Assembly: GCA_016219225.1 (NCBI GenBank)
Contig: JACRBX010000262.1
Span: 1-27,976 of the forward strand
Origin: Deltaproteobacteria bacterium
Lineage (GTDB): Bacteria; Desulfobacterota; RBG-13-43-22
Reading direction: 5' to 3'
DNA: 27,976 nt
Positions 85-14,082 of this stretch are shown here, one piece after another (the first letter of the stretch is position 1; every line of letters begins with the position of its first letter). The translations under genes and the position numbers were made by a program. The notes beneath the pieces are model-generated. The model was not told the origin of the DNA and searched no databases. It worked only from the letters and a program-made list of their open reading frames with translations.

Positions 85-2070
85 CTATTGAACAGATTTC
101 TGAATAATATCATTAAATTTCGGCATATTCAGAGGCATGGTTGGGTCCATGGTCCTCTCTTTGATTGCCAGCGCCCTGCGAAAGAGAGTCTCTGCACCGT
201 CGTAATCCCCTTTGGATTGAAGGAGTACGGCCAGGTTGTTCAGGCTTTGGGCTGTAGCGGGGTGATCGGGACCGGATTGTTGCTCGTTCATTGCCAATAA
301 AAACCTGACAAATGGAATGGCCTCGTTATATCGCGCTCTGGCATGAAGACAACCATAGAGCCCTACCAAAAGTTTGCTATTAAGCCGTTCATTGGGGCGC
401 ATATTCTGATGTGACCAAAGAGCCTCAGCATGGGGGAATAGAACCTCCCATGCAGGCCAGTTCTCAAATTCAAAAGCCGGATAGGGGGCGAACGTTGTCA
501 GAAGGGCGGTCGATTTATCGATCACTTCATCCTTGATGGAAGACGTAATCTGGTGCCGCTCCACTGCCTGCACCAGGCCGTGGACGGAGAATCCTTCAAG
601 GGCTTCTGGCCTTATCATGGAGTAGCGGATCAGGGCCTCCTTCCATTCACGGAGTTCAATTTCATCCGGCTCAGGAATATTATCATCGCCAGAGAGACGG
701 GCCTGTTCAGCCACGATGGATGCGCCATGGAGAACCATAGCAAAGGGAATGGGCGTAGGTGCCATAAATGAGGTGAGCCTGAGTATGGCCCGGGATCCTG
801 GAGGGAGTTGGTCAATGGTTGTGCGCCAGGTATTAAAGACGGCGTCAGGATACTCCGTTGCACCTTTGGTGCCCTTGGCAAGCAGTCTTCGTTCATTTTC
901 GGCCTTCTCATAAAGGGTTAAATATTTTCTATATCCGAACCCCTGACCCTGCCCTTTGTTCTGAATCTCTATATAGGCTGCGGCCTGCTCAAGGGCGAGG
1001 GGCAGATATCCGAGTTTGCCTGCCAGCTCATCACAGGCCGTCTTATCGTCCCCGGTCAGGTTCTCCCATTCGAGATGGGCCCGTTTGAGCAGCAACTCCC
1101 GCGCCGGTTCCTTATCGAGGACCCAGACCGGGGTCTGTTCAATGCCGGTCTCCCAGTCCGTGAAGCGGGAAGTGATGATAGTATGACAGTTGCCTGTTTT
1201 GGGAAGCCAGGAAAGGATTGTATTTTCATCAACCGCATCGTCAAAGATGACCAGCCGGAGGGGTGCGTCGAGGCGCTTAAGCTCTCTCAGTACTGAAGCG
1301 GCCTTCTCATCCTCCTTCAATCCTTCGCCGGTCCTTTCCGGGAACAGGAGTGGGTAGAGACCTGCCATCTCCGTGACCACGCCGGCCTTACAGCTTATCC
1401 AGAACATCTGGCGGTAACAGCGCCAGAATTTTTCTGCATACTCCCGGGCTAAGGTAGTCTTGCCAACCCCGCCCAGCGCGGTAACGGCCTGGATATGTCC
1501 CTGGGTCAGAGTGGTGGTGGGATTGGTAAAAAGCCTTTCATGTATCTCATCCATCAGGGCCTCACGACCCACAAAGTTCGGGTTATGGGAAAAGCGGAGG
1601 TGGGCTACCCTCTGCTCTTTCACCTCAGGGAGTGGGGCAGCAAGTAGTTTCCGCAGGGCCTCAAAGAGTACTGGCCATCGGTCTGAGGTGTCTTTTCCGG
1701 TTAGATCAATGACATCCCCTTGAAACCTAAGGAGAGGAGGAGTAAAGACCTCCTCAAGGGTACCCTCGAATACCAATGGGATGATCGCTTCGGCGCCATA
1801 GGTCTCGTACTTCGTCCATTCCTTCGTTTTCCAGCGCGGGGTGAGAACGGGAATAACGATCCGGCTGTTCTCACAACCAGCCTCGATCTCCCGATGCCAG
1901 TCGCAGCCGGGATCCAGGCGCTTCTTATCGAACCAAATCCTGGGATTTTTGGGGTCATCGCCGTTGAAACCGGCGGCGACAAGGCGGTCGTAGAGTTGTT
2001 GCGCCATGGATAGATCGTTAGAGGAGTAACTAATAAAAATGTCGTAGGTTTGATTAGCTTGATCAGACAT
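85..2070 (-). CDS. TIR-NB-ARC (STAND NTPase)-TPR protein, NLR-like
   Basis: 661-aa ORF. The N-terminus has a TIR-type strand (YDIFISYSSND) and a candidate catalytic Glu in TKEW. NB-ARC motifs: P-loop GGVGKTTLA, Walker B LVIFDDA, TSR and LPLAL (GLPL-like). The C-terminus has only ~2-3 TPR_12-like repeats (GPDHPATAQSLNNLAVLLQSKGDYDGAETLFRRALAI). Confidence 0.85.
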   Translation of the reverse strand: MSDQANQTYDIFISYSSNDLSMAQQLYDRLVAAGFNGDDPKNPRIWFDKKRLDPGCDWHREIEAGCENSRIVIPVLTPRWKTKEWTKYETYGAEAIIPLVFEGTLEEVFTPPLLRFQGDVIDLTGKDTSDRWPVLFEALRKLLAAPLPEVKEQRVAHLRFSHNPNFVGREALMDEIHERLFTNPTTTLTQGHIQAVTALGGVGKTTLAREYAEKFWRCYRQMFWISCKAGVVTEMAGLYPLLFPERTGEGLKEDEKAASVLRELKRLDAPLRLVIFDDAVDENTILSWLPKTGNCHTIITSRFTDWETGIEQTPVWVLDKEPARELLLKRAHLEWENLTGDDKTACDELAGKLGYLPLALEQAAAYIEIQNKGQGQGFGYRKYLTLYEKAENERRLLAKGTKGATEYPDAVFNTWRTTIDQLPPGSRAILRLTSFMAPTPIPFAMVLHGASIVAEQARLSGDDNIPEPDEIELREWKEALIRYSMIRPEALEGFSVHGLVQAVERHQITSSIKDEVIDKSTALLTTFAPYPAFEFENWPAWEVLFPHAEALWSHQNMRPNERLNSKLLVGLYGCLHARARYNEAIPFVRFLLAMNEQQSGPDHPATAQSLNNLAVLLQSKGDYDGAETLFRRALAIKERTMDPTMPLNMPKFNDIIQKSVQ

Positions 2071-2162: not shown

Positions 2163-2984
2163 TTATTCCATGTCTCTCAGCAAATCACCCAGCACCATGA
2201 TCGGCTTCCAGTAGATGCCCCGCTTGAATTTTTCAACATCCATCTGAAGCCCGATGGTGTTCTGCATTATTTTGAGTTTGCTGTCGATACTACAAACGGG
2301 GCGCCATGAGCAACGGCAACCCTCGTGCAGGCCATTGGTAAAAACCGCCGGCTCAATGGTCTCCCACTCCTCGGCGGTGCGGACCAGGCTGAGGTGTTTT
2401 AGGCAGGGCCTGCACAGTCGGTCGTCGACGGGTCCGGTCATCAGAAAGAGTCCCCCATCGGCCGAGAAATCCACATCTTTAGTCTGGCGACTCTCTTTGC
2501 CGTTCACGTCCATCCGCCCGTGCCAGTACCAGGGCTTTCTTAGATCCGTCTCGGGCTTGGCCGCCACCCCGAGCCACCAAGCGGCTCGCTCCAGGTCCTT
2601 GGGAACCCCCTGGCCCTTTTCATACATCCGTCCGAGGCACTCCTGGGCCGCCCTGTGTCCCCCCGTGGAAGCCAGGGAGAATCGCTTGAAGGCCTTCGCG
2701 TAGTTTTTGGACACACCTTCTCCCTTCAAGTACATGAGGCCCAGCCGGTAATCGGCAGTACGGCAGATACTATTGGCAGCCAGGCGTCGATACCACCTGG
2801 CCGCCTCGGCGAAATTCTGGGTTACTCCCTCGCCCTTCCTATACATCTCCCCCAGGGTGAACTGAGCCCAGGCGTCACCCTGTTTGGCCTGCCGCCGGAG
2901 GCTTTTCAAGTCACTCTTGGTTCGATTCAAGGTACCGGCTCCAGCGTCACGAATCTCATCATCGGGAACATTCCTGCCAGTCAA
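2163..2984 (-). CDS. Sel1-like repeat (SLR) protein with a C-terminal MuF/SPP1-gp7-like Cys/His module
   Basis: There are at least three Sel1 repeats (AQFTLGEMYRKGEGVTQNFAEAARWY; LGLMYLKGEGVSKNYAKAFKRF; LGRMYEKGQGVPKDLERAAWW). The C-terminal DDRLCRPCLKHL...LHEGCRCSWRPV resembles the D-x-R-V-R-P-x-H ... N-C-R-C signature of Phage_Mu_F (PF04233). The only in-frame start is TTG at 2984, since the first ATG lies inside a repeat, so the start is uncertain. Confidence 0.7.
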   Translation of the reverse strand: MTGRNVPDDEIRDAGAGTLNRTKSDLKSLRRQAKQGDAWAQFTLGEMYRKGEGVTQNFAEAARWYRRLAANSICRTADYRLGLMYLKGEGVSKNYAKAFKRFSLASTGGHRAAQECLGRMYEKGQGVPKDLERAAWWLGVAAKPETDLRKPWYWHGRMDVNGKESRQTKDVDFSADGGLFLMTGPVDDRLCRPCLKHLSLVRTAEEWETIEPAVFTNGLHEGCRCSWRPVCSIDSKLKIMQNTIGLQMDVEKFKRGIYWKPIMVLGDLLRDME

Positions 2985-3256: not shown

Positions 3257-3544
3257 CTATACCTTCTCTATCCCATACCCCAATCCCACTATCACCTTCA
3301 ATGTCTCCATGGCCGTCATCCGGTCGTATTCTTTCTCCGACTCGAGCAGGTCAGCGTAGGGGATAAGGTCCGGGTGTTTCTTGGTTTTATCGTCTCTCTC
3401 CGGCCCCCAGGTCCAGCCTTCACTCATCCGCTGTTTTGACCAGATCTCATGAGTATTCTCGGCCAGGTGTTCCGTCAGTTCCACGAGGTCGTTGGTAAGG
3501 GTGACTTTTGATGTGTCAATGGGTTTCGGTGTGTATGCATTCAT
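3257..3544 (-). CDS. Stand-alone RyR-domain protein
   Basis: LAENTHEIWSKQRMSEGWTWGPERDDKTKKHPDLIPYADLLESEKEYDRMTAMETLKVIVGLGY matches the RyR repeat signature (PF02026). The ORF opens at TTG 3595. I prefer ATG 3544 because AAGAGGA lies just upstream. Confidence 0.8.
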   Translation of the reverse strand: MNAYTPKPIDTSKVTLTNDLVELTEHLAENTHEIWSKQRMSEGWTWGPERDDKTKKHPDLIPYADLLESEKEYDRMTAMETLKVIVGLGYGIEKV

Positions 3545-3575: not shown

Positions 3576-6203
3576 TCACTTCTCGATAAAGACAATCTTC
3601 ATTCCCGCCTCACGGGCGAAATCAGGATAATGCCGGATCGTGTCACGGTCCTTGCCCTTATCTTTATCGCTTAATTTCGAGAACGGGATCAAACAGTCAT
3701 GTTGCTTCTTCTCGTCATCTCGCTTAGGATTGTAGCACCACCCCTTTTCAAGATGCCAGATCATCCAACCCTCATGCTCAGCTTCCGCCAGGGCCAAGAG
3801 ATAGTATTCCAAATGCTGTTTCACCTTATCTTCTTCTGCAGCGCTTGCCGTCCCTTCAACGAGGGTCAGCCCGATAAGGGCCAGCAAATTCAACATCCGT
3901 TTAGCTGCGGCGCGGTTGGATTCCTGAAAGAAGGGAGATAAATTTCCAAAATCCTTGTCGGTTTCAGGTTTCGACCATCCTTCCTTTTTCCCTAAGGCCC
4001 GGAAGGTTTCGCTTATGGCTGGGGCAATTTGTTTGATCTGCTCCATGGTCAAACGTGCTTCAGGGGAAAATATTTTGGGAGCATTAGAGCAAAGGAAAAT
4101 AAACTCTTCCGCATTCGTGTGCATCTCCAATTGGTTTAAGGGCATTAGCAGGGATCGGTGCAGCGTCCCTGGCCGAGCAGCAGCAAAGGGCTGGAGGGCT
4201 TTACCTAGGGATCGGGATCCGTGCATATACTCTTTCACGTGGAGCAAAGCATGGGCTAATCCCTCGTCAATCTCAAGCTTGTCGTCCTTTCCACATTTAA
4301 GCTCGGAGCGGCCCATGAGAGCACGCCGGATAGGGAAGAAGGTATCTGTCGGATCGGTGATAAAGTCATGTCCTCCAACCTTTTCAATCTGCTCCTCCAC
4401 ACTGCTGCCGGGCTTAAGATGAATTTTACGTTGATTTGGCCCAATAACGTCTAAGTAGGCATCAATCCGACTCTTGAAATCAGACCCCTTGGCAAGACGA
4501 AAATCATTATACGCCTGAACATCCACACCACTTATCTTTGATGGATCAGGCGGCCCGAAGGTTTCGAAGGTCCAGCTTGTCCCTCCGGCAAAGACAAAAA
4601 TACATTTCCCCAGGGTATGGGTGAGTTGACCTTCCTGGAATTTACCATCCTGCATGGGGGCAAGAAGATACTGGAGCCATCTGAATTTTTGGGAATCAAA
4701 CTCATCGAAAAAGGCAACCGGCAGTTGCCCCTGCAGGACTCGGTCACGGATCTGGTGAAAGGCGCCAATGAGATCGTCAGGAGAATTAAACTGAGAAAGG
4801 TTAAATTCCAACCAACCGTCTAAGGTTACCGTGCTGGCAGCGATTTCTTTCACAGCAAAAGATTTACCGGCGCCAGGAGGACCGAATACCCCGATAGAGA
4901 GGGGCTTCTTTCCTGATTCCTTTTTGTCTTCGTATCGTCGAATTACTTCTAATAGAGAGCGATAGGCTTCCATCTCTGTCCGGTCGGCTGTAAAAAGCTT
5001 GCCAATGCTGAGATGCGGCAGGCTTTCCAAAGCAATAGGACCGCGCAGAAGAACAAGCCGGGCCAGATCGAATACCGGCTTGAGCTGTGATTGACGGAGA
5101 ATACTCCAGGTCGAATCCGCCGGAGGGGATGAAGAATACACTGCCCTGGAATACAGGGTTCCAGGATGTTTTATTACTCCTGCCAGCCTCTTTGACGGGA
5201 ACCCCTGGGGTTCCTCTCCGGCAGGGCCATGCCCTTTTTCTCTGAGGTCTCTCATGGCGGCCAGCCCGCCCTCAAGGGCAGAGGCTATGTCAGGGATTTC
5301 AAGATTATCGGATAGCCGCCATGCCACGGCCGCTGCAAGACAGGAGAGAAACCCGAATCCTTTCCCCTCGGTCTTATATGAATGCTCCCCTTCGATACTG
5401 CCGGCGTTATGGATCAAATGGATGTAGGCTTTGGACAGTTCGGTTCCATCAGTAAGATCGATCCAGAGAGCGCCCTCCGATTCGAAGGTGATAATGAGAT
5501 GTCTGCATTTCACGAGATTGGGCAGAACACCCTCAGGTCTCAGTTCACGAAGTACCCCTTCAATGGTTTCTTCCCACGACAAACCAGCATGGAGTCTGGC
5601 CGGTGACTTACGCAATTCATGGGCGGACATGATCACGATCAGTTTGTTACGGTGGTTTATGGTGAGGTGGTCCCAGAGCTCTTCAACCCCCACCGGCGAT
5701 GTTGTCTTCAGGACTATCCACCGGGCTGTGGTAAGCCTCTCCTTCTGCCAGTTTTCTGGGCAATCCCTGAAACCCATCCCTCCTTCGGAGATGACCATGA
5801 TCTCGGGGCTTTCCGGTAGATCCGCCGCAATAGGCCATTGAACGCAACTTTTCTCTCCGTCATTAAAACCGAAGCCCATGGCCTCGCTGACCCGCCAGAA
5901 CTGGCGATCAGGAGAAATACCTTTTGGAAAAGGACGCCAGTACGCGTAGGCATGTTCGGCATTATTAAGGCCGAATGCCGCATCATTAGGCATGGCATCC
6001 TGAACAGTAAGACGGGAGGTCCACCCTTGCTTGTTCCCCTGAAGCAGCTCCTTCAGTATGCCTTGAACCAGGGCAGCTCCACCTATTTCCGGTTTTACCT
6101 TTACCCCGACCCTGGGCCTTTGTGCATAATGAAAACGTCGTCCTTCATAGACATGCTGGTCAATGATGAAATCACCTGTTACGAGAATGGCGTTGGCAGT
6201 CAT
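3576..6203 (-). CDS. PfkB/ribokinase-like domain - AAA+ ATPase - 2x RyR domain fusion protein
   Basis: The N-terminal ~400 aa align by eye to HldE/RfaE-type PfkB kinases (ILVTGDFIIDQHVY, EIGGAALV, IMVISEGGMG, HLIITFESEGALWID). The GAGD anion-hole motif is replaced by GKGF. The AAA module has Walker A GPPGAGKS and Walker B VAFFDEFD. The C-terminal RyR repeat is EHEGWMIWHLEKGWCYNPKRDDEKKQHDCLIPFSKLSDKDKGKDRDT, preceded by a weaker RyR-like repeat. The ORF extends to ATG 6335 (919 aa), but ATG 6203 has AAGGAG plus a 6-nt spacer and starts exactly at the PfkB first strand. Confidence 0.8.
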   Translation of the reverse strand: MTANAILVTGDFIIDQHVYEGRRFHYAQRPRVGVKVKPEIGGAALVQGILKELLQGNKQGWTSRLTVQDAMPNDAAFGLNNAEHAYAYWRPFPKGISPDRQFWRVSEAMGFGFNDGEKSCVQWPIAADLPESPEIMVISEGGMGFRDCPENWQKERLTTARWIVLKTTSPVGVEELWDHLTINHRNKLIVIMSAHELRKSPARLHAGLSWEETIEGVLRELRPEGVLPNLVKCRHLIITFESEGALWIDLTDGTELSKAYIHLIHNAGSIEGEHSYKTEGKGFGFLSCLAAAVAWRLSDNLEIPDIASALEGGLAAMRDLREKGHGPAGEEPQGFPSKRLAGVIKHPGTLYSRAVYSSSPPADSTWSILRQSQLKPVFDLARLVLLRGPIALESLPHLSIGKLFTADRTEMEAYRSLLEVIRRYEDKKESGKKPLSIGVFGPPGAGKSFAVKEIAASTVTLDGWLEFNLSQFNSPDDLIGAFHQIRDRVLQGQLPVAFFDEFDSQKFRWLQYLLAPMQDGKFQEGQLTHTLGKCIFVFAGGTSWTFETFGPPDPSKISGVDVQAYNDFRLAKGSDFKSRIDAYLDVIGPNQRKIHLKPGSSVEEQIEKVGGHDFITDPTDTFFPIRRALMGRSELKCGKDDKLEIDEGLAHALLHVKEYMHGSRSLGKALQPFAAARPGTLHRSLLMPLNQLEMHTNAEEFIFLCSNAPKIFSPEARLTMEQIKQIAPAISETFRALGKKEGWSKPETDKDFGNLSPFFQESNRAAAKRMLNLLALIGLTLVEGTASAAEEDKVKQHLEYYLLALAEAEHEGWMIWHLEKGWCYNPKRDDEKKQHDCLIPFSKLSDKDKGKDRDTIRHYPDFAREAGMKIVFIEK

Positions 6204-6327
6204 GACGATCTCCTTTGATTGGAAATGATATTCGGTTTCTTTATGATGGAAAAGATCACCGATTGGTGGGGCATCAGAGAGGGCTTCTCCATTTTTATTA
6301 TTTGGGTATGTGTGTAATGAACGTTGG

Positions 6328-9300
6328 TCATTCATCCTCCAGGGGCGGCGGCTGTGCCTTGCGCCATTCTAAGAACTGGTCCAGGGAAATGCGGGTCGCT
6401 CCATAATAAAGTTTCAGGAAACAGACCTGTCCGTTGGCTTGAGTGAGAACAAGGGTGCCATCGGATCTGAGGAGACGCGCTGTGCCGTCAGAATCGGCAT
6501 GCCAACGGGCACAGAGGACGATCTTTTGCCCCTTTACTGGAAGATTGACTTCTCCATAACGGCGTTCTGCTCTGGCAAATATGTCGGAGTAATAAAGGTC
6601 TCTTCCAAGATAAAGAGGTATTGATTCGGGATATCGAATGCAGAATTCAATGAAGTTCAATACTTCAATACAAGCTCCGGTTTTACTATCCCAGATGCGC
6701 AGGATATGATCCCAAGCCCACGAGAGTATCCGCCCGTCGTTGAGCTGAAGGGCGCCATTGGTCCAGTTTGTATGCCCCTCAAGTACGACGAGGGGGCGTC
6801 CGTCTGTATCCCAGAGGCGCAGGGTACGATCATCAGACCACGAGAGTATCCGCTCGTCGTTGAGCTGAAGAGCGCCATTGACCCAGTTTGTATGCCCCTC
6901 AAGTACAGCGAGGGGGCGTCCGTCAGTATCCCAGAGGCGCAGGGTATGATCACCAGACCAGGAGAGTATCCGCCCGTCGGTGAGTTGCAGGACGCCCTTG
7001 ACCCAGTCTGTATGCCCCTCAAGTACGGCCAGGGGGCGTCCGTCAGTATCCCAGAGACGCAGGGTATGACCATCAGACCAGGAGAGCATCCGTCCGTCGG
7101 TGAGCTGAAGAGCGCCACGGACCTGGTACGTATGCCCCTCAAGTACGGCGAGGGGGCGTCCGTCTGTATCCCAGAGGCGCAGGGTATGACCATCAGACCA
7201 GGAGAGCATCCGTCCGTCGGTGAGCTGAAGAGCGCCACGGACCTGGTACGTATGCCCCTCAAGTACGGCGAGGGGGCGTCCGTCAGTATCCCAGAGGCGC
7301 AGGGTCCTATCACCCGACCACGAGAGTATCCGCCCGTCGGGGAGCTGAAGGGCACCTTTGACCTCGAATGTATGGCCCTCAAGGACAGAGAGGCAAGGGC
7401 TGACGTCTGCTTCTTCCACTCTTTGCATTCGCCGCAACCACACCCAATCAACCTTGCCCGCGTGGAGATATTGCTCCGCCGCAATCGTTATCGGGCTGTT
7501 ATCGGCATGTTCAATGGCCAGTTGCAGCAGAATCTTGTGACCTGGCCATTCGTCGTTTCCACGGCGGAGGATGTGAATTTTCTCCCGGAAGGAGGTCGAC
7601 CAAAACTCAAGCCGTTTCGCTATCTCCGCTGGGGCTCGCCTCTCCAGCGTCCCGTAGTCGTAGGAAATCGAATCAAACAAGCCTAGTTCGCATTTCCGCA
7701 TCAGCCACGGGAAGTCGGTCACCAGTTCACCGGCTTCCATCCAGTCACCCGCGTCGGCTTGATGGCCGACAAGCTGCTGAAAGAAGTAGCCGTCATCCGG
7801 GCCTGAAGGCCAACTATCTGGGCATTTTCCGCGATAGGCATCGAGCAAGGTCCGGTGCAGGGCCTTTGGCTCGCCAGCCAAACGGGTGGCGAAGTCATAC
7901 ACGAGGTCGTGCAGGCGGAAGCGGCGTTCAATGGCTTCCCCCGGCTGGGCGGCCTTCTGGTCGAGCTGGATGAGGGAGCGCTCGGACAGGCTGATGAGCA
8001 GTTTGCTGCAGTTGCGATCGCTTAACGGCCCGGTGTGCTCCCACAGTACATGGACAGCAGCTTCCGGCACTGTCCGGCCCGTCGCGAAGACGGCGAGTTC
8101 GGCGAAGCGCGGTTTCTCCACGTCCTTCAGCGCATCGTAACTGGCCTTCATCGCGTTCCAGATGGTACGATGCTGTTCGTTGGTCTCCTCGCGGTTCTCC
8201 GGCCACTCCAGATCCGCTTCGCGCAGGGCTGCGACGATGTCCTGCCAGGAATGCCCTGCTTTTGCCATGCCGCCGCACAGCGCCACGGCCAACGGCAGGC
8301 ATCCGCACTCCCTGACCACTTCCTGCGCCTCGCGTGGAAGGGCGGCACGTTCCATGTCCACTGCGCCGGCGAGCAGTTGCAGCGCCTCCGGCTCGGTGAA
8401 GAGCGACACCGGCACGCACTCGCCGCCCATGGTGCTCAGGATGCCAATATCGCGCGTAGTGACCAGCGCCCGGCAGCGCGGGCCCAGTACATCGAAGGCT
8501 TTGGCATCCGAAGCATGCCAGACGTCATCAAGGACAAGCAGTACGGCCTTCTGAAGGAGCAGTTGTCGGAGGACACCCTGTCCTTGGACTTCGGTTTGAA
8601 ATGGCTCCTGACTGCCGAGGTGTCGGGCCACGTCGCGCAGGAGGCTAACGCGATCAGGTGGCTGGCCGACGGCGACCCAGATGATGCCGTCGGGGTAGGA
8701 GTGGCGCACCTCGGGGTCGCGTGCGAGTGCCGCGGCCAGCACGGACTTCCCGATGCCCCCCATGCCCTGCATGCCGACGCGCGCGGCGGCGCCGCTGATG
8801 ACGACGGGCTTCTGAAGGTCCACGAGCAGAGCGTCCTTGACGCGGCGAAGAAGATCGGGCCGGCCGAGAAAATTCGGCGGCAGGTTCGGCACACCGTAGA
8901 GCGCCCCCAAAGGCGGGGCGTCGAGGCGAAGATTCGCGATGAGCTTGGCGAGTTGGACCGGATACTGGGCATCGTCACGGAAATCGTCGCAGTGAAGCAA
9001 TCCCAGTTCGCCGGGAATGTCCTGGTAGTCGCCCCGTAGGAGGATGGGGATGACGGGCTTGTCGAGTTCGAGCCCCCAACGCCATTCCTGACGGACATAA
9101 TCGGAATGCGCCGCCTTCGGACCGACCACCAGCACTATCCTGTCCCGCGCGCGGATAGCGTCAGCGATCTCCTGGTGGAAGGTGAGTTGCCGAGACGGCA
9201 ATGAGACGCGGTCGAACCAGACATCAAAGCCAGCGGCGGTGAGATCGGTATGAAGCCGCACGACGAAGGATTTGGCGGGATTATACGGCTCGCCGTCATC

Positions 9301-9333
9301 GCCTCGGGCGTATGACAGGAATACCTTGGTCAT
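6328..9333 (-). CDS. TIR-NB-ARC (STAND NTPase)-WD40 protein, NLR-like
   Basis: 1001-aa ORF with AAGGAG 9 nt upstream of ATG 9333. The TIR starts at KVFLSYARGDD, with a candidate catalytic Glu in YVRQEW. Canonical NB-ARC motifs are present: GMGGIGKS, LLVLDDVW, ALVTTRD and GCLPLAV. Six 40-aa WD40 units (LEGHTxxVxGALQLxDGRxLSWSxxxTLRLWDTDGRPLAV) are followed by a degenerate blade. Confidence 0.92.
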   Translation of the reverse strand: MTKVFLSYARGDDGEPYNPAKSFVVRLHTDLTAAGFDVWFDRVSLPSRQLTFHQEIADAIRARDRIVLVVGPKAAHSDYVRQEWRWGLELDKPVIPILLRGDYQDIPGELGLLHCDDFRDDAQYPVQLAKLIANLRLDAPPLGALYGVPNLPPNFLGRPDLLRRVKDALLVDLQKPVVISGAAARVGMQGMGGIGKSVLAAALARDPEVRHSYPDGIIWVAVGQPPDRVSLLRDVARHLGSQEPFQTEVQGQGVLRQLLLQKAVLLVLDDVWHASDAKAFDVLGPRCRALVTTRDIGILSTMGGECVPVSLFTEPEALQLLAGAVDMERAALPREAQEVVRECGCLPLAVALCGGMAKAGHSWQDIVAALREADLEWPENREETNEQHRTIWNAMKASYDALKDVEKPRFAELAVFATGRTVPEAAVHVLWEHTGPLSDRNCSKLLISLSERSLIQLDQKAAQPGEAIERRFRLHDLVYDFATRLAGEPKALHRTLLDAYRGKCPDSWPSGPDDGYFFQQLVGHQADAGDWMEAGELVTDFPWLMRKCELGLFDSISYDYGTLERRAPAEIAKRLEFWSTSFREKIHILRRGNDEWPGHKILLQLAIEHADNSPITIAAEQYLHAGKVDWVWLRRMQRVEEADVSPCLSVLEGHTFEVKGALQLPDGRILSWSGDRTLRLWDTDGRPLAVLEGHTYQVRGALQLTDGRMLSWSDGHTLRLWDTDGRPLAVLEGHTYQVRGALQLTDGRMLSWSDGHTLRLWDTDGRPLAVLEGHTDWVKGVLQLTDGRILSWSGDHTLRLWDTDGRPLAVLEGHTNWVNGALQLNDERILSWSDDRTLRLWDTDGRPLVVLEGHTNWTNGALQLNDGRILSWAWDHILRIWDSKTGACIEVLNFIEFCIRYPESIPLYLGRDLYYSDIFARAERRYGEVNLPVKGQKIVLCARWHADSDGTARLLRSDGTLVLTQANGQVCFLKLYYGATRISLDQFLEWRKAQPPPLEDE
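6667..7386. repeat. Intragenic tandem repeat, 6 x 120 nt (WD40 blades)
   Basis: The period is exactly 120 nt. Units 7027-7146 and 7147-7266 differ at 3 of 120 nt, all synonymous, because the encoded blades are identical. Confidence 0.95.
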
Positions 9334-9582: not shown

Positions 9583-9638
9583 TTGAAAGACTATAACATG
9601 GAGGGAAACGGAGTCAAGAAGAATAATAGAGCGGAAGG
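9583..9638 (+). repeat. Dispersed repeat, copy C
   Basis: An ungapped hand alignment to 11734-11789 gives 43/56 identities (core GTCAAGrAGAAwAATAGAGyGrAAGG). Confidence 0.6.
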
Positions 9639-9651
9639 CCGGGAGGGTTTG

Positions 9652-10167
9652 CTAAATCCGATCCAGGATAACCGAGTCTATCTCTATCCCGTTGCCATCC
9701 CCACCGGTCACCGAAATGGTTATTTTATGGTCTCCTGGCTGCAGGGTTACGGGACCCAAGTCGGGGCTTTCGGCGAAATTGTTCCATCCCAAACCAAAAT
9801 CACCGGTATCTTCTGAAGTGAATTGTCCAACTGAGCTGCCATCCAATTGTATGGAAACCACTTCCGTTGGGCCGTTATTGTCATTGCTATACCGGACCCT
9901 TAGCCTGTAATTGGTATTGGTACCGGGACAAAGGGGGAAGGTGATGATCCGGGTCTCATTGGCGTGGAGCCAGACCGTGGCCTGTCCACCGGCATTGGAC
10001 CGGGACATCACCTGACCGGCGCCGGAACCGTTTTCAGCCTGGAGCACGATTTGGGTGGCGGCTGCAAGGCAACTTCCCCCTCCGCTGCCGCGGTTACCGC
10101 CTCCGCCTCCACACCCGGCATGACTGAGTAGAATGATTAGAGCTACATAAAGCCTTGATTTGTTCAT
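9652..10167 (-). CDS. Lipoprotein with a carbohydrate-binding-module-like beta-sandwich domain
   Basis: An internal ATG at 10167 opens a signal peptide with a lipobox (MNKSRLYVALIILLSHAGC) and a Gly-rich linker. The body (QAENGSG..., YRLRVRYSNDNNGPTEV, GWNNF, IEIDSVIL) resembles CBM6/35-like or galactose-binding-like domains. No clear SD is present. The long ORF continues upstream in frame to 10329. Confidence 0.55.
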   Translation of the reverse strand: MNKSRLYVALIILLSHAGCGGGGGNRGSGGGSCLAAATQIVLQAENGSGAGQVMSRSNAGGQATVWLHANETRIITFPLCPGTNTNYRLRVRYSNDNNGPTEVVSIQLDGSSVGQFTSEDTGDFGLGWNNFAESPDLGPVTLQPGDHKITISVTGGDGNGIEIDSVILDRI

Positions 10168-10185
10168 CACCGGCCCGGGTTGAAG

Positions 10186-10326
10186 CGATCGGTCCAATAC
10201 TGATCTTCGAACCGCCCGATCCAATTCATCGAGAAATTGCTTACCAAGACCATCAACCTGTTCATTGTACCAGACGACAGCGTCATCGAGTTCCTGCTGG
10301 GCCAACGTGAGAAAGCGTATTTTCAT
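10186..10326 (-). pseudogene. ParE/RelE-family toxin, N-terminal ~47 codons only (truncated)
   Basis: MKIRFLTLAQQELDDAVVWYNEQVDGLGKQFLDELDRAVRR is a typical ParE-type N-terminus. Its ATG overlaps the antitoxin stop (TGATG at 10324-10328). The similarity ends after ~45 aa, where the frame runs into the lipoprotein signal peptide. Confidence 0.6.
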
Positions 10327-10544
10327 CAACGGCGATACTTTTCTATAACATCCTTATATGATACTGACGGAATATGGCCTAATTTGTAAGCATCCCAACG
10401 TTTGCGCGCCTCCTCCGCCCAAATCCGATCCAACTCCGGGTCCGGTTTATCAAGATCGGTAAGGATTGCATCCACCAATCGCAGTTTTTCAACGTCCGAT
10501 AAAGAATTTATTTCCTCGGAAAGCCTTTCTGCTGTGGTTGTCAT
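10326..10544 (-). CDS. Putative addiction-module antitoxin component (TIGR02574-like)
   Basis: LSDVEKLRLVDAILTDLDKPDPELDRIWAEEARKRWDAYKLG matches the 'putative addiction module component' family that pairs with ParE/RelE toxins. GGAGG lies 7 nt upstream of ATG 10544. Confidence 0.7.
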   Translation of the reverse strand: MTTTAERLSEEINSLSDVEKLRLVDAILTDLDKPDPELDRIWAEEARKRWDAYKLGHIPSVSYKDVIEKYRR

Positions 10545-10840
10545 GATAACACCTCCGTTATTAAAACTATGCAATGCTTCGATTTTGGTTTTTTTATGAA
10601 TTTATCAATCATAACACTTCGTTCCCAAGACAGCAATCGATTGCGCTCCAGGCAAAAACGGCCCGCTTGAGACTATCGACCAGGCGCACGACATCATCTG
10701 TGCCACCGGCTTTCTACCAGTCATAAAATTTTTTGGGGGTCATGTTGAATTCCTGATTATGTTTTCTTCGCGCCGAAACAACCTACTCACTCGGAGCGCG
10801 CCGTTTGCGCGATCGGATGCAGCCGATGATTAGCTGCTTT

Positions 10841-11041
10841 TCATGCTGCTTTGAGCTTTGCAATTAGCTCCCGTACCGCCGGCACTATTTCTATTGGGAC
10901 TTCCATAACCGTTTGACCCGAAATTTCAAAAGCTGCCTCGTCTTCAGCGGCGGCTTCTTCCTCAGACTGAGATTCATAATGGGCCAATATACTATTCACA
11001 CGCTCTGCGTCCCATCCCGGTGGAAATTTGCTTTGTTTCAT
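10841..11041 (-). CDS. Small acidic protein, putative antitoxin partner of the upstream gene
   Basis: 66 aa (PPGWDAERVNSILAHYESQSEEEAAAEDEAAF). It overlaps the preceding gene by 4 nt (11038-11041). The function is inferred from context only. Confidence 0.45.
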   Translation of the reverse strand: MKQSKFPPGWDAERVNSILAHYESQSEEEAAAEDEAAFEISGQTVMEVPIEIVPAVRELIAKLKAA

Positions 11042-11322
11042 CTCTTTTTTCTCCTCCTTCGGCGGCGATATGCGACCAATGGTTTGCCTACAAGCTCATA
11101 GTCTGTAATCACAAAAACACTATTGGGCGCAGGATCGGGAACATAAATGACCCTGATATATCTCCCTCCCGATGTTTTTCCAATGGCGACTCTTGATCCT
11201 TCCCGTCCCGGTCGATCTTCGCCCGGGGTGGCGAGAACCTCTTCCACCTCCATTTCCTCAACGTCATGGCTATAGATATGGGGTAATTGCGTCTCTGGAT
11301 CAATGTAATAACGTATATTCAA
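11038..11322 (-). CDS. BrnT-like (DUF497-like) toxin candidate
   Basis: 94 aa. The pattern H-D-V-x-x-x-E-V-E-E-V-L ... GKTSGGRYIRVIY ... VITDYEL resembles BrnT-type toxins, and the C-terminal tail is basic. The start is TTG, with AAGGTGA 4 nt upstream. Confidence 0.45.
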   Translation of the reverse strand: MNIRYYIDPETQLPHIYSHDVEEMEVEEVLATPGEDRPGREGSRVAIGKTSGGRYIRVIYVPDPAPNSVFVITDYELVGKPLVAYRRRRRRKKR

Positions 11323-11363
11323 TACGTCACCTTTATGTCATTCTTTCAGCGGCAACGTTCGCA

Positions 11364-11684
11364 TCACTGGGGACCGTCAGCCGCAGGTTGGCTGCTATCC
11401 GGGTGCAGGCGAACGTCCGGCGTTTCAACATTCCCTTCTAATTTCCCTGTTGCCATAAAATAAAGCGACTCAGGTGCAATATCAAAACCACAATCCCAGG
11501 CAAGAGTAGGCCAGGAGTCAAGGTAAAAACGTGAGAACACTACGGGATCGCGTAAGGGTGAGGCAATTGCATATTTGTACACAATATCTCGAAGATCAAC
11601 TTCTCCTGTTTCCCCGGTGTTAAATTTTAGCTCAATCCGATAGTCATTGATATACCGTGCTTCTAATACAGAAATACATTCCAT
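11364..11684 (-). CDS. DUF2442 domain protein
   Basis: The layout (IELKFNTGETGEVDL ... WPTLAWDCGFDIAPESLY) is characteristic of DUF2442. GAGAGGA lies 6 nt upstream of the ATG. Confidence 0.65.
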   Translation of the reverse strand: MECISVLEARYINDYRIELKFNTGETGEVDLRDIVYKYAIASPLRDPVVFSRFYLDSWPTLAWDCGFDIAPESLYFMATGKLEGNVETPDVRLHPDSSQPAADGPQ

Positions 11685-12000: not shown

Positions 12001-12222
12001 TTAAGCGGCAAATTTAATAATTTCCAGTTCCGCAGCGTAATCGGCTTTCTCAAGAATTTGATCCACTCGTTCCATAATATTATCTTCTAATAGATATTCA
12101 TTACAATTTTTACATTGGAGTACCGGCAATTCTTTTAAAATAATGATGGTCTCCTGGTCCACCTTAAAAGGCAAGGTGGTAATAATAGGCTCCATTTCAG
12201 ATCCACAAACATGGCATTTCAT
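12001..12222 (-). CDS. YgiT-type (MqsA-like) zinc-finger protein, putative antitoxin
   Basis: MKCHVCGSEM...LQCKNCNEYLL is the CxxC...CxxC YgiT-type finger (TIGR03831-like). It overlaps the DUF4258 gene by 4 nt (ATGA). Confidence 0.75.
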   Translation of the reverse strand: MKCHVCGSEMEPIITTLPFKVDQETIIILKELPVLQCKNCNEYLLEDNIMERVDQILEKADYAAELEIIKFAA

Positions 12223-12563
12223 TTTGACGGTCTCCTTGTTTTAAAATCTTCATTCCATTCTTGGGAATCTGGCTGATAGGCGGTAATAACCCGAATGTTA
12301 TTTCCAGGCATATCTATAGCAAACTGGACATGAAAAATATTGCCCTTATTCCAAGAATAAACCAGGTAACTGGGAAAATATTTGTCATCTGGATATTCTT
12401 CGATGATTTCGAACTGTGAAACGGAATCCAATATTTCGTTTCGGTTAATAAATCTTTCTTTTAATCTCATAGTTACATGATAAGTCCAGAAAATTTTTCT
12501 CTCCTTTATGCAACGCTGAATATAGCTTAAAGGATCAATAGGAATTCGATGCCTATCGTTCAT
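12219..12563 (-). CDS. DUF4258 domain protein, putative toxin
   Basis: WTYHVTMRLKERFINRNEIL ... NNIRVITAYQP is the DUF4258 signature. I take ATG 12563 as the start, although the ORF opens at TTG 12578. Confidence 0.75.
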   Translation of the reverse strand: MNDRHRIPIDPLSYIQRCIKERKIFWTYHVTMRLKERFINRNEILDSVSQFEIIEEYPDDKYFPSYLVYSWNKGNIFHVQFAIDMPGNNIRVITAYQPDSQEWNEDFKTRRPSK

Positions 12564-12883
12564 AAAGATTCCCGTCAAATCTGAATTGACAACTTTTTAA
12601 GGAGTAAAAAAGTATAATAAATTAACATTTTTAAGTTTACAAGACAATGTTTTTCAAGATCCGGGTTAATTTTCTCTTATTAACGGTCTCATTGTAATAG
12701 CGACTTGGTGGAGGCTGTATTGGGCCAGGCAAAGATACCAAATTTAATATGGGGATGGAAAGGAGTCTGAACTGGGATAGATTTGAGAAGGTCTTTTCCG
12801 GGGGGGAAATTTTTTCGTCAAAAATGATAGCGGGGGTAAGGAGAGGCCCTCTTAATTTACATAGCTCGGGAGGCTTTTCAACC

Positions 12884-12934
12884 TTTACACTGGAATTTTT
12901 TTATGCTATATTAGTTACTAAAGTTTAGTAACTA
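12884..12934 (+). promoter_or_regulatory. Sigma70-type promoter plus a 23-bp perfect palindromic operator
   Basis: The promoter is TTTACA (12884-12889), a 17-nt spacer and TATATT (12907-12912). The palindrome TAGTTACTAAA-G-TTTAGTAACTA (12912-12934) starts at the last base of the -10 element and ends 23 nt before ATG 12958. Confidence 0.6.
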
Positions 12935-12957
12935 TAAAGGTGATAGGGAGCCGTGAG

Positions 12958-14082
12958 ATGCAAAATCCATTCTATTTCAGAGTGTTACCATTGACAGCGC
13001 CCTTCTGTGATAGAGAGAAAGAACTGGACCAGTTGGTGGCCCATGCTCAGAACAGGGCCAACGTCGTTTTTTTCTCTCCGAGAAGATATGGGAAGACATC
13101 CCTCGTCCAAAGGGTACAGGAAAGATTGAAGAGAAAGGGACTCGCGACGGTCTATATCGATTTGTTCGGCATCGATTCGCAGGAAGACCTGGCTGCCAGA
13201 ATGGCCTCCCGGCTCTATTCCTATTGTCATGAAAACGAAGGCCTCTTTAAAAAGGCGATGAAATTTTTATCCTCCTGGAGGCCGGTAATCAGACCTGATC
13301 CGGAGTATGGCGTTTCCCTGACCGTGGAGCGATCCGTCGGGCGGAAGGGGGCCGATCTCCTCAACAGTACCCTCGATGGCTTTGGTAAGTTCATCCAAGA
13401 AGAAAAGAAGGGTGTTCATATTGTCTTCGATGAATTTCAAGAGATCTCGGAGTTACGTGAGTCCCTCCAAATAGAAGGAATGCTGAGGGCGCACATCCAG
13501 ACTCACAGCCGTGCCTCTTACTTCTTCGTGGGGAGTAGGCGGCGCGTTCTAACTGATATCTTCAACATTCGAAAGAGGCCTTTCTATCGCAGTTCTATAA
13601 ACTTTCCGTTAGGTCCTTTACCCTTTGAAGAAGGAGTCCGTTTCGTAGTTGAACAGTTCAAAAGGGGAGGAAAATCATGCCCGGAGGAGATCGGAAAGAA
13701 AATCCTTGAAAAAACGGGTGGCTATCCCTATTACGTCCAGAGAGTGCCTTATTCGATCTTTGAGGTCAGCGGTAAAAAGGTGACTGAGGAGGACTATATT
13801 AAGGGGTTCCAGAAAACCGTTGAAGAAGAGGGCATCGTATATGAAGCGATAGTTCAAGCCCTTTCACTTCAACAGATAAAACTCCTTTCCGCGTTTGCTC
13901 TGGAGCCGACTGAAAAGCCTTACTCTGTCGATTACATGGGCAGGCATGGCCTCGGCTCTGTCGGCGGCGTCCAGGGAGCACTTAAGAGATTGTTGGAACT
14001 GGACTATATCGAAAAGAAGGCTCCCCTCTTCGTGATCGTCGATCCCCTCTTCGGGATCTGGCTCAGACGCCTTAAGGAATGA
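12958..14082 (+). CDS. AAA+ ATP-binding protein, archaeal-ATPase family (PF01637-like)
   Basis: Walker A FFSPRRYGKTSL and Walker B HIVFDEFQEI follow the PF01637 pattern. GGGAG lies 7 nt upstream of ATG 12958. The ORF opens at GTG 12940. Confidence 0.8.
   Translation: MQNPFYFRVLPLTAPFCDREKELDQLVAHAQNRANVVFFSPRRYGKTSLVQRVQERLKRKGLATVYIDLFGIDSQEDLAARMASRLYSYCHENEGLFKKAMKFLSSWRPVIRPDPEYGVSLTVERSVGRKGADLLNSTLDGFGKFIQEEKKGVHIVFDEFQEISELRESLQIEGMLRAHIQTHSRASYFFVGSRRRVLTDIFNIRKRPFYRSSINFPLGPLPFEEGVRFVVEQFKRGGKSCPEEIGKKILEKTGGYPYYVQRVPYSIFEVSGKKVTEEDYIKGFQKTVEEEGIVYEAIVQALSLQQIKLLSAFALEPTEKPYSVDYMGRHGLGSVGGVQGALKRLLELDYIEKKAPLFVIVDPLFGIWLRRLKE

Follow-up and report, generated by a model that had tools for sequence, protein, structure and literature searches.

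The locus described here lies in a stretch of 27,976 nucleotides (the window, analysed as a whole) from a Deltaproteobacteria metagenome-assembled genome (MAG; contig JACRBX010000262.1 of GenBank assembly GCA_016219225.1). Five co-oriented minus-strand genes of this window encode, in the order of transcription, a TIR-NB-ARC-WD40 protein, a protein of 875 residues that is the subject of this study (hereafter the target), a 95-residue RyR protein, a Sel1-repeat protein and a TIR-NB-ARC-TPR protein. The target combines a ribokinase/PfkB-like domain, an AAA+ module and a tandem of RyR repeats, and it belongs to a large family whose genes recur beside TIR genes. The longest open reading frame (ORF) spans 3576..6335 (minus strand) and had been taken as the gene in the initial annotation; the frame is real, but its first 44 codons are unconserved. 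An AAGGAG Shine-Dalgarno sequence stands 6 nt 5' of the ATG at 6203, and the N-terminus encoded from there, MTANAILVTGDF, is common to all homologues and to the NCBI call (875 residues, HY879_21665, Deltaproteobacteria MAG). The true start is almost certainly this ATG, which gives 875 residues and from whose Met all residue numbers are counted below. Conservation counts refer to an alignment of 266 family members. The features of the target are the following.

3576..6203, minus strand: whole target gene, 875 residues, PfkB-like - AAA+ - tandem RyR (ORF list, Shine-Dalgarno sequence, NCBI call, homologue starts)
5169..6203, minus strand: ribokinase/PfkB-like domain with beta-lid, residues 1-345, degenerate as a kinase (AlphaFold2, Foldseek, hhalign)
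6144..6185, minus strand: beta1 loop LVTGDFIIDQHVYE, with D11 and D15 kept (hhalign, column counts)
5352..5369, minus strand: EGKGFG, counterpart of the PfkB anion-hole motif TGAGD(x), with F283 in place of the catalytic Asp (hhalign register)
4404..4913, minus strand: AAA+ ATPase core (weak Pfam matches to AAA, bpMoxR and AAA_5, weak PDB matches, conservation)
4860-4883, minus strand: Walker A, GPPGAGKS (K447 in 266/266)
4695-4712, minus strand: Walker B, FFDEFD (D500 and E501 each in 266/266)
4461-4490, minus strand: KGSDFKSRID with R579, assigned as Arg finger by motif position (R579 in 266/266, within KGxDFxSR)
4179..4403, minus strand: AAA+ lid with a variable insert, assigned from motif position (family alignment)
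4206-4223, minus strand: HGSRSL with R664, assigned as sensor 2 by motif position (R664 and S665 in 266/266, within HGxRS)
3846..4037, minus strand: RyR repeat 1, degenerate, with the His-bearing loop deleted and KDR changed to SNR (hhalign, Foldseek, column counts)
3579..3827, minus strand: RyR repeat 2, canonical, with H810, W813, R828, H835, K851 and D852 (Pfam RyR, conservation)

Fold and conservation of the three modules

Scans with Pfam, NCBIfam and PADLOC returned nothing in residues 1-450 of the target. PF00294 had no match at E<=10 in any of the 27 family members scanned and the Pfam gathering threshold was not reached, while the family profile, run against all PDB sequences, found no match for the N-terminal domain at E<=10. 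The AlphaFold2 model of this domain, built from a 27-sequence alignment, has a predicted local distance difference test score (pLDDT) of 85.9 and a predicted template modelling score of 0.88, and the top 50 Foldseek matches in the PDB are all ribokinase-family kinases (best E 1.4e-9, range 1e-9 to 1e-7, probability 1.0), including LacC, HldA at rank 2, pseudouridine kinase, ribokinases, Pfk-2 and fructokinases. Altogether 209 matches fall at E<=1e-3, with template modelling (TM) scores normalised to the target of 0.43-0.58, moderate values of the kind that lid movement and insertions would lead one to expect. Alignment by hhalign to E. coli HldE alone gave E 0.0032 over 135 columns, and to a six-sequence PfkB profile 285 colinear columns (E 4e-5, probability 43%) in which TGAGD is paired with EGKGF; with E. 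coli RbsK alone the alignment covered 47 columns and was meaningless. The by-eye pairings with domain I of HldE/RfaE on which the initial annotation had built its proposal of a ribokinase-like region were all recovered by these two alignments, and the predicted structure allows us to assign the domain with confidence to the ribokinase/PfkB fold.

The residues of the sugar site are kept across the family. D15, which hhalign aligns with the ribose-binding Asp16 of ribokinase, is Asp in 249 members and Glu in 8 more, and D11 is present in 261; the GG motif, aligned to that of HldE, is equally constant (G41 in 265, G42 in 262), as is an acidic residue at position 140 (265/266) aligned to the SDYAKG region of HldE. 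The loss of the catalytic Asp, first noticed by eye in the target, is confirmed by hhalign, which puts this Asp opposite F283, and it extends over the whole family: the column holds Phe (141), Tyr (42), Ile (35), Leu (16) or Val (14), no Asp is conserved between 279 and 285, and at most 4 members carry Asp at any of these positions. Nor is the Asn of the NXXE motif conserved in either plausible register (positions 192-194); an acidic residue at 196 (Asp in 137, Glu in 103) could match the Glu of this motif if the register were shifted by one. The family has near-invariant residues of its own (R23, W89, W103, R104, F145, R146, K166, R198, E271 and G324-H325-G326), and H325 is exchanged only for Tyr or Phe. 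Since the sugar site is kept, the phosphotransfer elements are lost and the family-specific residues are invariant, the N-terminal domain is, judged by its sequence, a dead kinase under strong constraint with a predicted basic and aromatic pocket. Such a pocket would suit a ribose-containing anionic ligand, and ADP-ribose may be viewed as resembling a bisubstrate mimic of the ribokinase reaction (adenosine-PP-5-ribose). The PfkB fold, the family-wide loss of the phosphotransfer base and the retained sugar-site residues thus make the non-catalytic ribose or nucleotide pocket proposed in the initial annotation a reasonable reading, but the further proposal that this pocket senses a TIR product is not supported in that form, as discussed below.

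Two residues were considered as substitutes for the missing catalytic residue. C288, a candidate for a catalytic Cys of the ThiD/ThiK kind, is aligned five residues past the Asp position, in a helix, and was rejected as a base because its exchanges for Ala, Thr, Val or Ser (43/266) form the pattern of a buried small residue; H325 is unlikely to be a catalytic His, the Tyr/Phe exchanges being a stacking pattern. Compared with HldE domain I, HldA and ribokinase (PF00294), the target shares the fold with its beta-lid, the GDxxxD beta1 loop, the GG motif, the [ST]xxxG strand and the acidic residue in the SDYAKG-equivalent strand, and HldA is its second-best structural match. It differs from them in having Phe or Tyr for the catalytic Asp, in the lost Asn of NXXE, in its new invariant Arg, Lys and Trp residues, in lacking a Pfam match and in being fused to an AAA+ module.

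The AAA+ module, whose Walker motifs are invariant as listed above, is very likely an active ATPase. It had initially been described as a classical AAA module, and here the motifs stand, whereas the attribution to the classical type draws on weak matches: Pfam AAA (PF00004) scores 22.4 bits against a cut-off of 21.2 and over 67 residues only, and the PDB matches to Cdc48, p97, FtsH and Rpt proteins range from E 1e-3 to 0.3. In our reading of the alignment, the segment LLAPMQDG resembles the classical LLxxMDG motif, and the pore-loop equivalent is DLIG, devoid of aromatic residues, which we take to resemble p97 D1. Membership of the MoxR-vWA-beta-propeller ternary systems (bpMoxR, PF20030; PMC7159879) was considered and rejected, the weak Pfam similarity (20.8 bits) lying below the cut-off of 27 and no recurrent vWA partner being found among the clustered neighbours; a VIT-vWA gene adjoins a family member only at one locus (L064). 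Beyond this similarity, the target shares with these systems, described by Kaur et al. 2020 (PMC7159879), a setting of conflict loci of 'multicellular-type' bacteria in which STAND, TIR and WD40 proteins abound; RyR or ribokinase-like domains are not mentioned in that paper.

At the C-terminus, Pfam RyR (PF02026) detects one repeat in the target (E 1e-12 to 2e-14) and matches 24 of the 24 family members scanned (48.5-54 bits against a cut-off of 27.4). The stretch of about 65 residues before it is a further repeat, the hhalign comparison of the repeat 1 and repeat 2 profiles giving a probability of 81% and E 1.2e-5. The AlphaFold2 model of residues 690-875 (pLDDT 91) aligns by Foldseek over 177-200 columns (186 query residues) to the whole Repeat12 (R12) tandems of human RyR3 and of the Bt-hRyR12 chimera (E 2e-6 to 1e-4, TM-scores 0.5-0.6), and it also matches phage RyR proteins in BFVD (E 4e-4 to 1e-2). 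Because the two profiles align and the model covers whole tandem Repeat12 domains, the two RyR repeats read by eye at the outset are real, the first being degenerate, and together they form a complete tandem Repeat12 domain. Position 731 in repeat 1 is His in 253 of the 266 members and Ser in the target and in only 5 overall; the already degenerate first pocket is thus further eroded in the target.

Repeat 2 keeps the ligand-type residues E809, H810, W813, R/K828, H835, K851 and D852 in 230-263 of the 266 members (H810 in 263, W813 in 261, H835 in 241, D852 in 253), not all of which are kept in repeat 1. The comparison with phage proteins is instructive here. Two preprints of 2026 show that RyR domains of phages either cleave 2'/3' cyclic ADP-ribose (cADPR) and cADPR or bind them with nanomolar Kd (PMC13232231; 10.64898/2026.06.04.730250). 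In RyDEP the ligand residues are H75, W78, H100 and D117, with H75/D117 as the catalytic dyad of the glycosidase, although most RyDEP homologues are nanomolar, non-catalytic sponges (PMC13232231); RyR Tad gp68 binds 3'cADPR, 2'cADPR and cADPR via H129/W132, K147/H154 and K170/D171 (10.64898/2026.06.04.730250). The spacing H-3-W-22-H-17-D of repeat 2 is that of H75/W78/H100/D117 in RyDEP and of H129/W132/H154/D171 in RyR Tad, and R828 and K851 stand at the two Lys positions of the latter; with the His/Trp/His/Asp spacing identical and both Lys positions occupied, repeat 2 is predicted to hold the full known cADPR pocket. The target thus belongs with these phage proteins by domain family (PF02026) and by the residues of repeat 2, and differs from them in being host-encoded, chromosomal and without a match in the phage genomes searched, in forming an intramolecular tandem with one degenerate repeat where the phage proteins are homodimers of a single repeat, and in its 875 residues, in which RyR is joined to large enzymatic modules; its predicted role is to receive the signal, not to destroy it. 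With animal RyR1-3, whose R12 domain binds adenine nucleotides and dantrolene, the target shares the two-repeat fold over the whole tandem; it differs in being bacterial, in not being part of an ion channel and in having one of the two pockets intact.

The 95-residue RyR protein encoded immediately downstream (3257-3544, minus strand) matches vertebrate RyR2 with E 9e-19 for one Repeat12 repeat and E 5e-66 against the whole receptor. The ligand residues His/Trp/Arg/His/Asp are present in it, Tyr and not Lys standing before the Asp. This protein is a candidate signal buffer or glycosidase, and small stand-alone RyR genes of this kind recur (in the window and at L009, L010 and L025).

Genomic neighbourhood and variant architectures

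The family is large, with 1,991 clusters at 50% identity at E<=1e-3 and 1,408 at E<=1e-10; among the 150 matches listed (E<=4e-62) nearly all have 850-950 residues, and those that are shorter are probably fragments. The family is carried by at least 337 species genomes from many bacterial phyla, plus one Methanobacteriota (archaeal) MAG. The gene is also found in strains that are in culture, which makes experiments feasible (Intrasporangium oryzae NRRL B-24470, Humibacillus xanthopallidus DSM 21776, Oligosphaera ethanolica DSM 24202 and Clostridium polyendosporum JCM 30710). A tblastn search of 50,697 phage records found no homologue. Three homologues reside on plasmids, and RefSeq names plasmid copies only 'RyR domain-containing protein'. 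One plasmid copy (L087, Methylobacterium sp. FF17 plasmid pA, NZ_CP107533.1) lies near a 2082-residue SIR2-family protein and not near a TIR protein, with transposase genes in between; SIR2, too, is a defence domain that consumes NAD+.

In the window itself, the genes that accompany the target are the following.

6328..9333, minus strand: TIR - NB-ARC - WD40 STAND protein, 1001 residues, directly upstream of the target (Pfam TIR_2 3e-18, NB-ARC 4e-35, WD40)
3257..3544, minus strand: stand-alone RyR-domain protein, 95 residues, beginning about 30 bp past the target stop (Pfam RyR E 1.9e-35; AAAGAGGA before the ATG)
2163..2984, minus strand: Sel1-repeat protein, 273 residues (Pfam Sel1 3.2e-21)
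85..2070, minus strand: TIR - NB-ARC - TPR STAND protein, 661 residues, end of the gene row (Pfam TIR_2 7.7e-15, TPR_12, NB-ARC; PADLOC PDC-S66)

Association with TIR genes was assessed by calling ORFs in 80 genome loci and searching them with iterated in-house hidden Markov models (HMMs) of TIR and DUF4062, counts being taken over 75 non-redundant loci with a flank of at least 3 kb. TIR and DUF4062 were counted separately because the profile-profile match between the two neighbourhood sets is weak (probability 7%, E 0.005). TIR genes occur in 39 of the 75 loci and DUF4062 genes in 20; one or the other is present within 10 kb in 48 loci (64%), within 3 kb in 40 and within 300 bp in 19. These figures are lower bounds, since Pfam finds a DUF4062-NB-ARC-TPR protein at L030 that the in-house HMMs missed. 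As an internal control, the density of such genes declines roughly tenfold away from the target homologue: it is 22.9 per 100 kb over the first kb and 2-5 per 100 kb at 6-10 kb. Among those at most 1 kb away, 29 of 34 are co-oriented with the target homologue, and gaps of only 0-36 bp between the genes are seen repeatedly in different phyla. In 65 of the 68 neighbourhood TIRs the column of the catalytic Glu is conserved. Neighbour look-ups for three distant homologues returned TIR, ThsB_TIR or DUF4062-STAND genes in all cases.

Clustering of the neighbours within 5 kb (82 loci) yielded only three recurrent families. The first and largest is a supercluster of TIR and DUF4062-STAND proteins, present at 51 of the 82 loci. 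The second (c2), at 27 loci, comprises proteins of 190-820 residues that are often encoded directly downstream of the target homologue, about half of them within 35 bp (for example, all on the plus strand, L081:12640-14292, L003:13191-14975 and L077:12602-13183). Their N-terminus bears GxTGHR...GAD...GGT motifs and is putatively SLOG-like, with a weak nucleoside-deoxyribosyltransferase match (Nuc_deoxyrib_tr), the C-terminal half is hydrophobic and was read by eye as a putative transmembrane (TM) region, and one copy has a faint match to DUF4231, a family that we take to be SLATT-related; no c2 protein matched PADLOC. This putative SLOG-like-TM protein could possibly be a second, signal-gated membrane effector. 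The third family, at 16 loci, consists of RyR- or TrkA_N-containing proteins, among which are a RelA/SpoT protein with a C-terminal RyR domain, toxSAS-like and matching the PADLOC candidate PDC-S33 (L055:7649-10213, plus strand), a NUDIX-RelA/SpoT-TPR protein with a C-terminal RyR domain (L008:3698-6613, plus strand) and a TrkA_N/RCK-domain protein with a C-terminal RyR domain and an N-terminus that appears hydrophobic by eye (L059:8108-9916, plus strand). This bacterial combination of RCK and RyR domains is reminiscent of the animal channel. Gene orders vary accordingly: RelA/SpoT-RyR, target, TIR-STAND at L055 and L056 (Bacteroidales); TIR, target, c2 at L036 (Intrasporangium oryzae); and target, ThsB-like TIR, c2 at L003, where the TIR gene directly downstream matches the PADLOC ThsB models.

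Fused and truncated relatives add to this picture. The metagenomic protein P0174 consists of the full protein followed by a helix-turn-helix (HTH)-like segment (Sigma70_r4_2) and a C-terminal TIR_2 domain. Another metagenomic protein, P0196, aligns to residues 1-814 of the target and from the start of RyR repeat 2 onwards is replaced by NACHT-TPR; by analogy, the PfkB-like-AAA part would occupy the N-terminal effector position of a STAND protein, with a protein-sensing module in place of the RyR pocket. Conversely, a protein from a Syntrophobacteraceae MAG (L010:13545-15986, plus strand) has the architecture TIR-NACHT(NPHP3_N)-winged HTH-RyR tandem and is 33% identical to the target over both repeats, the RyR tandem standing at the STAND sensor position where TPR or WD40 repeats are usual; if RyR binds TIR products, this protein would be a self-amplifying loop. 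A PfkB-like-AAA part fused to an M1 aminopeptidase (PepN-like) was also seen (L053:9995-14479), which may be an assembly or deletion artefact. Taken together, gene context and gene fusions strongly support the TIR link of the target family; this link, called speculative in the initial annotation, has turned out to be the best-supported part of it.

A possible receptor and effector of TIR signalling

We give an even chance to the reading that the target is a component of TIR-based immune operons, either Thoeris-like or STAND-TIR, in which it would act as a receptor/effector of the TIR pathway and most likely as a signal-activated effector. In such operons, the adjoining TIR proteins (TIR-NB-ARC-WD40/TPR STAND proteins here, short ThsB-like TIRs elsewhere) would sense infection and convert NAD+ into an ADP-ribose-derived nucleotide. 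The tandem RyR/Repeat12 domain would bind this nucleotide in the pocket of repeat 2, repeat 1 serving as a degenerate structural partner, and ligand binding would switch on the single AAA+ module, whose catalytic residues, as assigned above, are all intact. The ribokinase-like domain would transfer no phosphate and might instead be an output or substrate-docking domain, possibly holding a second ADP-ribose-like ligand. The nature of the nucleotide is our inference; as to the direction of signalling, P0196, the L010 protein and the fusions of RyR to RelA/SpoT, NUDIX and TrkA_N lead us to place the RyR tandem at the input and the PfkB-like-AAA part at the output, the RyR domain being a likelier signal sensor than the kinase-like pocket. 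It is tempting, though on balance doubtful, to go further and to propose that the RyR/Repeat12 tandem is a host receptor for TIR-made cyclic ADP-ribose, feeding PfkB-like-AAA+, RelA/SpoT, NUDIX, TrkA_N/RCK and TIR-NACHT outputs, and that it was the source of the phage RyR sponges and glycosidases. In the target, it would then gate an effector of a new type, whose dead ribokinase binds ADP-ribose as a bisubstrate mimic while its AAA+ motor delivers the output, and the connection between cADPR and ryanodine receptors in animals would be given an evolutionary rationale.

Several observations weigh against the role of a signal-activated effector in TIR operons. About one third of the loci have neither TIR nor DUF4062 in the available flank, as on Clostridium chromosomes and a Clostridium plasmid, and the TIR link is therefore not obligatory, or else the partner lies elsewhere in the genome. 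TIRs of the STAND (Avs-type) proteins are usually seen as NAD+-depleting effectors, not as signal makers, for which reason they were excluded by Yirmiya et al. (10.64898/2025.12.03.692087). Animal R12 domains bind ATP/ADP, and by analogy an ordinary adenine nucleotide could be the ligand. The putative SLOG-like-TM protein encoded at 27 loci could be the real effector and the target a regulator, and we can name no toxic activity for a dead kinase joined to an AAA+ module. Finally, P0174 and P0196 are single metagenomic cluster representatives and could be assembly or frameshift artefacts.

The initial annotation had placed the sensor in the PfkB-like pocket, which would detect an ADP-ribose-like TIR product and drive the AAA+ motor; in such a model RyR is an accessory. 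We regard this as unlikely, although it is compatible with a two-site model. Sugar-site residues are kept and catalytic ones lost, and the near-invariant R23, R104, R146, K166, R198, W89 and W103 and the Tyr/Phe-only exchange of H325, suggestive of base stacking, speak for it, as do the likeness of ADP-ribose to a bisubstrate mimic, which is our own reading, and P0196, which keeps the PfkB-like domain while losing RyR repeat 2. However, the PfkB-like domain of P0196 stands at the effector and not at the sensor position, and it is the RyR tandem, not the PfkB-like domain, that is common to the RelA/SpoT, NUDIX, TrkA_N and TIR-NACHT proteins. RyR is moreover the only module with direct experimental precedent, its ligand residues being kept in repeat 2, and we know of no immune system in which a PfkB-fold domain serves as signal receptor. 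The target might instead be a regulator or off-switch, whose AAA+ module disassembles activated TIR/STAND oligomers while the RyR domains of the target and of the 95-residue protein buffer or hydrolyse TIR-made cADPR, preventing autoimmunity or resetting the system. Protein remodelling is the typical activity of AAA proteins of the classical type. The equivalence of the RyDEP glycosidase dyad H75/D117 to H810/D852 (PMC13232231), each of the latter widely kept, would agree with this, as would the recurrence of stand-alone RyR genes and the other candidate effector at the 27 loci with c2; but among RyDEP homologues with these residues non-catalytic sponges predominate (PMC13232231), many loci consist of a target homologue and TIR genes only, without any other candidate effector, and the architecture of P0196 points to an effector role, so that we consider the off-switch rather improbable.

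Less probable still is an independent system whose only tie to TIR-STAND genes is a place in the same defence islands and whose RyR tandem senses the level of ATP/ADP or NAD+ in the manner of animal R12. The R12 domains of RyR1 and RyR3 do bind ATP, ADP and AMP-PCP (Foldseek PDB matches 6uhh, 9ls7, 9l9b and 7tzc), the third of loci without detectable TIR would be explained, and the nearest large neighbour of the Methylobacterium plasmid copy is the SIR2 protein. Independence is at odds with the distance decay and co-orientation bias of the TIR/DUF4062 genes, with their short recurrent gaps across phyla, with the fusions that join the whole protein to TIR (P0174) and the RyR tandem to TIR-NACHT, and with the finding that no other defence gene family recurs beside target homologues. 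That the gene serves a mobile element or prophage as an RyR sponge shielding it from Thoeris is hardly credible: all characterised RyR-domain proteins of the prokaryotic world are phage anti-Thoeris factors (PMC13232231; 10.64898/2026.06.04.730250) and three homologues are on plasmids, but none was found in the phage genomes, in many phyla the gene sits on the chromosome in the same orientation as TIR genes, a TIR fusion is known from one relative, and none of the genes scanned in the window is a phage gene. That the target is an active kinase of carbohydrates or nucleosides, with a substrate from metabolism, can be effectively excluded; the ribokinase fold and the kept sugar-binding residues would allow it, but none of the 266 members has the catalytic Asp, neither register yields the Asn of NXXE, PF00294 fails to match, C288 is no ThiD-like substitute base and there are no metabolic neighbours.

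If the target is indeed a signal-activated effector, the closest known relatives in function would be the Thoeris effectors, which comprise ThsA (SIR2-SLOG) and the further sensor-effector fusions of types I-XI. The target resembles them in adjoining TIR genes with a conserved catalytic Glu, in its modular layout of a nucleotide-binding domain with an output module and in the pairing of some homologues with short ThsB-like TIRs (L003, PADLOC ThsB). It is unlike them in that its putative sensor is an RyR/R12 tandem and not SLOG, Macro or another described sensor, in that its putative output, a dead ribokinase with AAA+, is not mentioned for the 29 effector types in the main text of Yirmiya et al. 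2025 or in the supplementary files searched, and in that the TIRs of the window lie inside STAND proteins, which that survey excluded. The main text of the survey contains no RyR, ATPase or kinase, and those of its supplementary files that were searched contain no RyR or PF02026, AAA appearing there as strain names. PADLOC has no model for the target protein, neither RyR nor ribokinase-like domains figure in the Aravind conflict-system papers or in a 2026 STAND survey, and no description of the PfkB-like-AAA-RyR architecture, or of host RyR proteins in TIR operons, was found in the literature searched. TIR nucleotide signalling is thus the known kind to which the system would belong, and its receptor and effector architecture would be new.

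The target locus and the related ones point to a use of the RyR domain by bacteria themselves, within TIR operons. Should the proposed role hold, TIR signalling immunity would gain a new receptor class and a new effector class, a degenerate ribokinase with AAA+, and STAND/NLR-like TIR domains might be able to feed diffusible signals to separate effectors and even to an RyR-sensing TIR-NACHT protein, a possible amplification loop. The origin of the phage RyR sponges would be explained, and the long-debated link between cADPR and the R12 domain of the ryanodine receptor would become testable in a simple bacterial system.

Other features of the window

Within the gene row, the TIR-NB-ARC-WD40 gene contains a 120-bp (40-residue) tandem array of 5.8 copies with 88% identity (6687-7383, minus strand), and two WD40 units of its product are identical at the protein level (LEGHTYQVRGALQLTDGRMLSWSDGHTLRLWDTDGRPLAV). 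Because these internal repeats are highly similar, a recent expansion or homogenisation of the sensor domain is suggested. The last ~110 residues of the Sel1-repeat protein (2163-2984, minus strand) contain Cys and have no family match, and this protein does not recur in related loci. Upstream of the row, a consensus scan located one promoter-like site.

9590..9617, minus strand: TTGACT-16-TATAGT (10/12, TG extension), upstream of the TIR-NB-ARC-WD40 gene

This site is only suggestive of a possible operon promoter. The scan of the window for promoters and terminators gave a number of sites not above the shuffled expectation, and the operon structure accordingly rests on orientation and spacing only.

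Small toxin-antitoxin-like genes border the TIR row (9652-10574 and 11038-11684, minus strand). Among them, an Unstab_antitox gene (10326-10574) overlaps a 225-residue ORF (9652-10329, minus strand) whose N-terminus, in our own reading, resembles a ParE/RelE-type toxin and which runs on into a CBM6/Endotoxin_C-like beta-sandwich; a DUF4258 gene follows at 11038-11322 (minus strand). Past ~10.6 kb the window contains toxin-antitoxin genes and then mostly housekeeping-type genes, encoding GroEL, an HD-domain phosphohydrolase, a radical-SAM/SPASM enzyme, HemB and a GGDEF protein. At 12001-13000, where the toxin-antitoxin genes give way to an ATPase_2/AAA_16 gene (12940-14082), the G+C content drops to 0.36, against about 0.5 elsewhere, and this stretch may mark a boundary of acquired DNA.

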